NCBI RefSeq assembly: GCF_003334815.1
Contig: NZ_QOWO01000126.1
Length of the DNA stretch: 592 nucleotides
Reading direction: 5' to 3' (one strand)
DNA from: Escherichia coli
GTDB taxonomy: Bacteria > Pseudomonadota > Gammaproteobacteria > Enterobacterales > Enterobacteriaceae
Shown here: positions 1 through 578 of the stretch, one piece after another
Position numbering within the stretch: the stretch's first letter is position 1
Layout: every line of letters starts with the position of its first letter
Notes under the pieces: model-generated
Database searches by the model: none
Seen by the model: the letters and a program-made list of their open reading frames with translations, nothing else
What the model was told of the DNA's origin: nothing
Made by a program: the position numbers and the translations under genes

Positions 1-215
1 TTGCAGAATTAAGCCGCCGTTTCAGCTGCACGCTGGAGCACTGGTATGCCGAACAGGGCTGTGATTTCTGTGGCTGGCAGTTGTATGAGCGCGGAGAGCT
101 TGTTGATGTGCTGTGGGGGGAGCTGGAATGGTCTTCCCCGACAGATGATGATGAGCTGCCGGAAGTCACCGGACCTGCGTGGATAGTCGACAAGGTGGCG
201 CATTACGGTGGATGA
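1..215 (+). CDS. 3' end of a protein-coding gene, 5'-truncated by the window edge; hypothetical protein, last 70 codons plus TGA stop
   Basis: Only long open frame on + in this region (codons at 3,6,9...; stop TGA 213-215). Translation: AELSRRFSCTLEHWYAEQGCDFCGWQLYERGELVDVLWGELEWSSPTDDDELPEVTGPAWIVDKVAHYGG*. About 44% of codons start with G; codons are mostly enterobacterial-preferred (CTG, CCG, GCG, GAA). Six Trp, a Cys cluster (C-x10-C-x2-C) and an acidic DDDE tail. No in-window start, so not in the supplied ORF track. Followed 11 nt later by an intrinsic terminator. Product family not recognised. Confidence 0.7.
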   Translation, partial: AELSRRFSCTLEHWYAEQGCDFCGWQLYERGELVDVLWGELEWSSPTDDDELPEVTGPAWIVDKVAHYGG

Positions 216-358: not shown

Positions 359-420
359 GGGCGCTTTTACCGCTCCCGGCTGGCGTCGGTGACAGTGTAC
401 GCCAGCCCGTCGCCCTTTTC
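359..420 (+). terminator. Internal terminator-like or attenuator-like nested hairpin followed by a T-tract
   Basis: Perfect 9-bp stem 378-386 (GGCTGGCGT) with 399-407 (ACGCCAGCC), 12-nt loop; outer 5-bp helix 359-363 (GGGCG) with 411-415 (CGCCC); immediately followed by TTTTCT (416-421). The T-tract is short (4 T), so termination efficiency is uncertain. Confidence 0.35.
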
Positions 421-528
421 TGATGAACGCCCTTCAAGCCGCTTTCGCGGCATAGCCTTGCCGTCAAAAAGACGACGGCTGCGGTATTCCACGGTCGGCC
501 TGACCCGTTACCGGACGCGGTGAACAGC

Positions 529-540
529 CCACAGGCAGCG
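529..540. repeat. Right arm of perfect 12-bp long-range inverted repeat (CCACAGGCAGCG)
   Basis: Exact reverse complement of 317-328; the arms are separated by 200 nt. Its first 7 nt (CCACAGG) recur at 552-558. Confidence 0.85.
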
Positions 541-546
541 GGGAAC

Positions 547-578
547 GGGCACCACAGGGGTGCCCTCCCGGTGCCCTC
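547..578 (+). repeat. Hairpin (GGGCACC/GGTGCCC) plus tandem direct repeat GGTGCCCTC x2, just upstream of the RBS
   Basis: 547-553 GGGCACC pairs with 559-565 GGTGCCC (7 bp, 5-nt loop ACAGG). GGTGCCCTC occurs at 559-567 and again at 570-578, separated by CC (period 11), so 547-553 can pair with either copy. Confidence 0.7.

Follow-up and report, generated by a model that had tools for sequence, protein, structure and literature searches.

A DUF1281 (YccB/YubB-family) gene at the border of an IncI1-type plasmid leading region: identity of the window gene and a possible role in plasmid establishment

Identity and reading frame of the window gene

The window, that is the whole 592-nt stretch of Escherichia coli DNA analysed here, opens inside a reading frame, and it raises the question of which protein ends there and what kind of locus its gene belongs to. 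Frame 3 of the plus strand is open over positions 3–212, reads AELSRRFSCTLEHWYAEQGCDFCGWQLYERGELVDVLWGELEWSSPTDDDELPEVTGPAWIVDKVAHYGG* and closes with a TGA stop codon (213–215). The open reading frame (ORF) upstream of the window is undisrupted and gives 308 codons in all, of which positions 3–212 (+) are the last 70 (residues 239–308); translation, Pfam matches of the full protein, AF2 structure prediction and dN/dS together assign them to a yccB/yubB-family gene (DUF1281 plus DUF1281_C). Residues 22–198 of the full protein matched the complete Pfam model of DUF1281 (PF06924, positions 1–177 of 177; E 1.5e-46, 158.6 bits) and residues 201–274 matched DUF1281_C (PF18406, positions 1–74 of 88; E 2.7e-15), a domain partly encoded in the window and described in Pfam as a 'ferredoxin-like domain in Api92-like protein'. 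The full protein also matched PDB 2IJR ('hypothetical protein api92', E 9.4e-44), the two-domain fold of which it has. In a PDB-wide profile search with the 43-sequence alignment only api92 was recovered, the next hit, bacterial STING, being not significant (E 0.036). The structural matches in AFDB50 were YccB/YubB/DUF1281 members only, all without functional annotation; the sole strong match in PHROGs was the unannotated family phrog_37043, and NCBIfam and PADLOC gave no match to the protein.

Window positions 3–215 are hence the 3′ end of an intact gene under selection, whose product is a soluble, strongly acidic protein of 308 aa belonging to the DUF1281/YubB/YccB family. A sequence-only reading of the same DNA had taken this segment for a real protein C-terminus, which the open frame to TGA and the purifying selection bear out, and had reserved the outcomes of a housekeeping family or a pseudogene as grounds for withdrawing its view; with the full ORF recovered and searched, neither applies. 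Its remark that the family was unrecognised holds insofar as the protein has no known function, but the family itself is catalogued as DUF1281, YccB/YubB. Indeed, yccB/yubB is a very common plasmid gene, and the gene, its family, the crystal structure of a homologue and the leading-region enrichment were all already known. The family corresponds to family 27 among the 100 largest leading-region-enriched families of Samuel & Burstein 2024 (PMC11541004, Supplementary Table 1), where it is entered as 'Uncharacterized; DUF1281' with 1949 members, an FDR p of 0, a median position of gene 22 from oriT and the T-strand orientation; the UniProt names that the table gives are YubB, YccB, YfdA, YfaB, YafB and W0052.

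In plasmid pAVS0969-B (locus L001), as in many RefSeq proteins of 300 aa, the DUF1281 gene is probably annotated with a start eight codons too late. An ATG at L001:7289, preceded by the ribosome-binding site GAGAGGAG, adds the residues MPNWCSNR (L001:7289–7312), including the conserved Cys5, and the 308-aa form is used in the pESBL record and its published re-annotation. If translation begins at this ATG, which lies outside the window, the protein has the family's N-terminal strand MPNWCxNR, which is near-invariant among the 43 homologues (M1 in 43/43, N7 in 42/43, C5 in 39/43).

Plasmid locus and distant relatives

The window differs by one mismatch from pAVS0969-B, in which the matching stretch takes in the 3′ end of the DUF1281 gene and a 383-nt spacer and runs up towards a DNA methylase gene, and the window is 97.6% identical to pESBL-EA11 (14 mismatches in 592 nt). 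The gene order in L001 is impCAB (opposite strand), DUF1281, methylase, ..., a klcA-type antirestriction gene, ..., ssb, ..., a ParB-like gene, psiB and psiA, all co-oriented from DUF1281 onward. This is the leading region of an IncI1-type plasmid. Abutting either sopAB or impCAB, yccB is the oriT-distal border gene of the leading region in IncI1/IncF plasmids and has its orientation in common with ardA, klcA, ssb, psiB and the M.EcoGIX methylase gene. The expectation that the identity of the gene would decide between types of locus was therefore sound: it settles the locus as a mobile element, namely the leading (anti-defence) region of a conjugative plasmid of the IncI1/IncF type. At L001:6919–6934, closely downstream of a sigma-70-like promoter (minus strand, 6965–6936), there is a perfect palindrome, CTGTATGCATATACAG, that resembles a LexA box; it is the expected SOS operator of the DinI-like/umuD/Y-polymerase (impCAB) operon into which the promoter points, and is separate from the yccB finding.

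Relatives at 27–45% identity retain a similar neighbourhood, next to ArdA, ArdC, orphan methylases, SSB and PsiB. The contexts comprise an ICE-like contig (ArdC, DUF1281, N6_Mtase, relaxase TraI_2, integrase), a second context with CbtA, DUF1281, ..., N6_Mtase and a UvrD-like helicase, a third with SSB, topoisomerase, DUF3085 and DUF1281, a fourth with DUF1281, ArdA, ..., ParB, PsiB and PsiA, and a Citrobacter IncF plasmid with umuDC, DUF1281, methylase, ..., and an antirestriction gene. A full-length homologue of 345 aa was also found in the Erwinia jumbo phage pEa_SNUABM_54 (L011:2314–3348; 26% identity, E 5e-25), which keeps the motifs PNWCSNR, NGFNG, YGTKWP, DFDTAWSPP and FCG as well as a ...SYGG C-terminus. 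The full YccB architecture, including the C-terminal tail, is thus conserved down to 26–30% identity in ICEs and a jumbo phage. Separately, a metagenomic contig resembling a conjugative element carries two tandem DUF1281 paralogues, followed by DUF6094 and an SNF2-like helicase (L007:444–2427).

Prevalence, selection and disrupted alleles

The window matched 4731 records in complete E. coli genomes, with 5362 of the 5427 matching places on plasmids. By tblastn against 72,556 plasmid records, yccB was found in at least 5000; among the matches listed, 4787 span 80% or more of the 308-aa query, and conjugative plasmids account for 3961. Between IncI1 and IncF, dN/dS was 0.21–0.34 for the yccB gene and 0.17–0.27 for the part in the window, with 0.08–0.12 for the neighbouring methylase gene. 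On the evidence of these substitution patterns, yccB is a live gene under purifying selection.

Disrupted alleles are nonetheless common, and one frameshifted form of 168 aa (P0067) represents a cluster of 527 sequences. Rare chimeras also occur, in which YccB residues 1–216 are joined to the C-terminal half of the methylase (P0029, a single deletion fusion) or YccB is joined to PsiB, FinO or TraV; these look like deletions or assembly artefacts.

Predicted fold, conserved residues and the zinc-ribbon idea

According to the AF2 secondary structure, the ferredoxin-like domain is split into an N-terminal part (strand 4–12 and helix 15–26) and a C-terminal part (from about residue 207–210 to 277), and the helical DUF1281 domain (32–201) is an insert between the two. 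The window would encode the end of helix α2 followed by strands β4 (residues 248–255, nt 30–53), β5 (260–267, nt 66–89) and β6 (270–277, nt 96–119). The sequence-only reading had pointed out a C-x10-C-x2-C arrangement here and wondered whether it could be part of a metal-binding or zinc-ribbon-like motif. The spacing was read correctly, with C247 (nt 27–29), C258 (nt 60–62) and C261 (nt 69–71) spanning positions 27–71 (+), and H251 (nt 39–41) and E255 (nt 51–53) lie between the first two Cys. Among 43 diverse homologues, H251 is kept in 38, C261 in 37, E255 in 36, C247 in 27 and C258 in 18, so that only C261, H251 and E255 of these five are well conserved. D137, D227 and T228 are conserved at ≥90%. 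In about 70 full-length homologues at below 62% identity, the recurring pattern is C5/H251/E255/C261, and positions 247 and 258 vary freely.

The metal-binding idea did not survive this comparison. Since C247 and C258 vary among homologues, the three-Cys arrangement is not a conserved unit; neither is its reading as a zinc ribbon supported, and the set that is conserved is a different one, taking in a far N-terminal Cys. The three Cys lie on or near strands β4 and β5, two of the three are variable, and in the alignment api92 keeps the first and lacks the other two. The replacements are G, A, V or L at C247 and M, E, G or N at C258, and C247 sits at the opposite end of β4 from C258 and C261. 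Four family-conserved Cys/His ligands in two knuckles, as a zinc ribbon or Cys-rich metal site would have, were not found; the full protein had no zinc-ribbon match in Pfam, and no zinc ribbon was present among its structural neighbours. On the other side, the model puts C258-x2-C261 in a knuckle-like position at the turn of the β4–β5 hairpin, there are 10 Cys in the full protein, and C5 on the neighbouring strand could in principle supply a zinc ligand. The zinc-ribbon idea is largely refuted, and we regard it as barely tenable.

The segment had also been called Trp-rich, with six Trp; five are present in the 70 residues (nt 42–44, 75–77, 114–116, 129–131 and 180–182). Against a 1.5% background this is an excess (binomial P = 0.004), but the whole protein has 15 Trp in its annotated 300 aa, and at that rate five in 70 is ordinary (P = 0.27). 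Four of the five window Trp are at positions that are aromatic (Y/F/W) in the family, Trp itself occurring mainly in the IncI/IncF clade.

Positions 120–212 (+) encode a C-terminal tail that is conserved in the alignment and modelled by AF2, in which an acidic linker, SSPTDDDELPEV (nt 132–167), is followed by GPxW/YI...HYGG-COOH; the acidic stretch noted earlier is hence present. The family consensus is a D/E-rich 'DEDxxxxV' for the linker and GPxY/WI..N..H-Y/F-G-G for the tail, with P296 kept in 42 of the 43 homologues, G295 and G307 in 34 each and G308 in 32. The 30-residue tail has a pLDDT of 90–95, and is therefore predicted to pack on the protein body. Acidity is a trait of the whole family (median net charge −21, median pI 4.6), with a net charge of −23 for YccB. 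The [HN][YF]GG end is missing as well from the homologues without C261, namely those of the api92 clade and a few others; as few independent lineages are involved, this co-variation in the alignment may be taken as a weak hint only.

Flanking DNA

Nine nucleotides past the yccB stop, a GC-rich hairpin, GGAGACGGGCGG-GCAA-CCGCCCGUUUCU, is followed by a T-rich run (224–251, +), and the RNA fold of positions 205–265 has a free energy of −26 kcal/mol (z −2.9). This hairpin was absent from the list of a consensus terminator scanner, probably because the stem runs into the T-run. It looks terminator-like and would end the yccB transcript.

On the minus strand, the DNA from 216 to 592, continuing to about 598, is the class-3 single-stranded DNA (ssDNA) promoter ('ssp3', a name from a 2026 preprint) of the M.EcoGIX-type methylase, an assignment made from its ssDNA fold and its identity to pESBL. 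Folded as ssDNA, the minus strand of 216–592 reaches −108 kcal/mol (z −6.7), and the arms of the main stem, at 317–346 and 511–540, form an inverted repeat. The spacer is 98.7% identical to the intergenic region of pESBL-EA11, for which Wen et al. 2025 (PMC12672017) give a transcription start by 5′ RACE and a class-3 ssDNA promoter of M.EcoGIX, one of six ssDNA promoters for early expression in transconjugants. Judged by this identity, the structured DNA is the published promoter, functional on the transferred strand, which is the minus strand of the window. Between IncI1 and IncF the spacer is 96% identical, more than the flanking genes (93% and 91% nucleotide identity). The methylase gene starts at about window position 599 and is of the M.EcoGIX type (NF010253, E 4e-150); M.EcoGIX shields pESBL from restriction by up to 1000-fold (PMC4288162).

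A PGAP 'hypothetical protein' of 103 Arg-rich aa is annotated on the plus strand at 212–523 (L001:8212–8523), overlapping the GC-rich hairpin. It had no match in NCBIfam, PHROGs or PADLOC, and the curated pESBL annotation does not carry it; an indel breaks its frame in the IncF plasmid pSFO157, and in the Citrobacter homologue the frame is interrupted by both indels and stops. This ORF is probably spurious and is spreading through RefSeq. Rfam gave sub-threshold matches only. One of them, to the 'Erse small RNA' (RF02757; window 363–558, −), scored 19.3 bits (E 0.0025), where the gathering score is 138; lying over the ssDNA-promoter hairpin, it probably reflects a common GC-rich stem structure, rather than membership.

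Upstream of yccB, a block of 289 nt (L001:7000–7288) is 95.9% identical between IncI1 and IncF, more than the yccB gene itself, and the genes beyond it differ (impCAB versus sopAB). It folds strongly on the T-strand (z −5.4), with 27-nt inverted arms at 7094–7120 and 7232–7258. This block may serve yccB as a priming site or as an ssDNA promoter that has so far gone unreported; the six ssDNA promoters of pESBL, as published in the available part of PMC12672017, include none for Hp8, the pESBL counterpart of YccB. It was also considered as a copy of the ssp3, klcA or ssb promoter, a notion rejected because it has no sequence similarity to them. No long direct repeats were found in L001.

Possible role of YccB

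No functional study was found in the literature searched on DUF1281, api92, YccB/YubB/YfdA/W0052 and recent leading-region anti-defence work, nor was any report found there that tests family members for inhibition of defence systems; a paper on F-plasmid protein translocation does not mention the family under its DUF or YubB names. By homology, YccB belongs to none of the known anti-restriction families (ArdA, ArdB/KlcA, ArdC) or other anti-defence proteins, and for all 1949 members of family 27 the entries for anti-CRISPR/anti-restriction sequence and structure matches are 'NA' (PMC11541004). For plasmid maintenance and for transfer to K-12 alike, the pESBL TnSeq classed Hp8 (53471–54397) as non-essential with a score of 1.00, which ArdA, KlcA and M.EcoGIX received too (PMC4288162). 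The zygotically induced operons of pESBL, in the available part of PMC12672017, are those of ssi1-3, klcA, ardA and M.EcoGIX, and Hp8 lies upstream of the M.EcoGIX promoter, apparently outside the early-induced set.

We prefer to read YccB as an establishment or anti-defence factor of conditional use, acting by binding to a protein of the host. We infer this role tentatively and place it somewhat short of an even chance; identity and establishment role taken together are evenly poised, a judgement that also counts the identity, itself near certain. YccB would help the plasmid to settle in a new host by binding and neutralising a host protein, for example a defence or DNA-processing factor, via a conserved acidic, aromatic-rich surface and pocket, with the tail (acidic linker and GPxYI..HYGG) packing back on the body. 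It appears to have a transcription unit of its own, set off by the terminator-like hairpin past its stop and by the methylase gene's own ssDNA promoter, and would matter only in recipients with the relevant barrier, as for ArdA, KlcA and M.EcoGIX. The role is favoured on account of the company and orientation of the gene, its conservation across unrelated conjugative elements, the acidity of the protein and its dispensability in a defence-poor laboratory cross. That it could be conditional is suggested by the TnSeq score of Hp8, which is the same as that of M.EcoGIX, although M.EcoGIX matters up to 1000-fold against restriction–modification. The acidity of YccB argues against DNA binding, and binding to either DNA or zinc is unlikely.

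Several findings count against this establishment role. The TnSeq cross into K-12 revealed no phenotype, the classical anti-defence genes reach the recipient before yccB does, the gene apparently does not belong to the early-induced set, and its disrupted alleles are frequent. Moreover, YccB has no similarity to known anti-restriction or anti-CRISPR proteins in sequence, in fold or by PADLOC, and the conserved polar residues C5, N7, D137, D227, T228, H251, E255 and C261 would also suit an enzyme. A bolder form of the idea, which we consider doubtful, is that the YccB/YubB proteins are unrecognised establishment or counter-defence effectors of conjugative elements, with jumbo-phage relatives, bearing a candidate Cys5/His251/Glu255/Cys261 pocket capped by the HYGG tail and expressed from a fourth kind of ssDNA element, the 289-nt block.

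An enzymatic function is unlikely. C5, H251, E255 and C261, together with N7, D137, D227 and T228, could form a putative thiol-dependent site between the ferredoxin-like and helical domains, which the HYGG tail may gate, and the substrate may be a small molecule, a nucleotide signal or a protein of the new host. The conservation of these residues given above favours such a site, as does the joint absence of C261 and the [HN][YF]GG end in some homologues; the 'YubB ferredoxin-like domain' turns up again among phages and giant viruses, and the full-length homologue of the Erwinia jumbo phage carries the same motifs.

Alternatively, YccB could have no part in host entry at all, being a donor-side or maintenance accessory, or near-neutral cargo where the leading region meets the maintenance region. 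Its non-essentiality in TnSeq, the numerous frameshifted, truncated and fusion alleles, the directly adjacent sopAB or impCAB and its absence from the six early-induced operons in the available part of PMC12672017 are consistent with this. We nevertheless think it distinctly unlikely, as the dN/dS of 0.2–0.3 indicates purifying selection, the architecture and tail are kept to 26–30% identity in ICEs and a jumbo phage, and the family is statistically enriched in leading regions and always in the T-strand orientation; furthermore, the 289-nt upstream block, in which IncI1 and IncF agree to 96% and which folds strongly on the T-strand, would fit ssDNA expression or priming.

It is very improbable that YccB acts as a functional partner (a regulator, specificity factor or loading factor) of the adjacent single-strand-specific methyltransferase M.EcoGIX: the order DUF1281–structured spacer–methylase is kept in IncI1, IncF and the Citrobacter plasmid (45% protein identity), and in distant ICE homologues a methylase from another Pfam family (PF02384) lies one to three genes downstream. 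Against this, the two genes are apparently transcribed separately, a terminator-like hairpin and a dedicated ssDNA promoter lying in between, and in one plasmid lineage ArdA instead of a methylase adjoins DUF1281. Artificial constructs were used to characterise M.EcoGIX, the deletion phenotype of which was obtained with Hp8 present, and two members of an anti-restriction island would be expected to lie close together in any case. A strict DUF1281–methylase coupling was downgraded in the course of the analysis, once contexts without a methylase had been found.

DUF1281 is among the approximately 30 largest leading-region families and is carried by at least 5000 sequenced plasmids, mostly conjugative enterobacterial ones; should YccB prove to act in establishment or against host defences, it would add to the determinants of plasmid host range. 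What the analysis provides is the removal of the zinc ribbon as a false lead, the flagging of two annotation errors, and the residues and tail to which a functional study could turn.

Comparison with known systems

YccB of R64/ColIb-P9, YubB/YfdA of F and Hp8 of pESBL (O3K_25842) are the same gene as that of the window. The window protein and Hp8 agree in 288 of 308 residues (93% identity), and leading-region position and orientation are alike. There is no difference of substance from Hp8, YccB or YubB, apart from the start annotation, which is eight codons late in the record used here, and the many IncF copies that are frameshifted or truncated.

The homologue api92 (PDB 2IJR) comes from the adhesion pathogenicity island of Yersinia pseudotuberculosis, and its structure is a structural-genomics one. 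Unlike YccB, the api92-clade proteins lack C258, C261 and the tail of acidic linker and GPxYI..HYGG, and they are ICE-borne, whereas YccB is plasmid-borne. The short 'YubB ferredoxin-like domain' proteins (PF18406), observed in uncultured phages and giant viruses (Moumouvirus, AaV), have the split ferredoxin-like domain in common with YccB (Foldseek E 1e-4 to 2.5e-7), and PHROG 20518 and 12644 match YccB residues 182–261. They differ in being about 170–260 aa long and without the helical DUF1281 insert, with a TM-score to the query of about 0.3.

The acidic anti-restriction proteins offer a comparison of another kind. Like those of leading regions, such as ArdA (with phage Ocr as the DNA-mimic paradigm), YccB is soluble and strongly acidic, has the same neighbourhood and orientation, and is dispensable in laboratory crosses. 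On the other hand, YccB has no sequence or fold similarity to them and is apparently outside the early-induced operons. By analogy, the likeness to acidic anti-restriction proteins may thus serve as a lead on the mode of action of YccB, rather than as a sign of membership.
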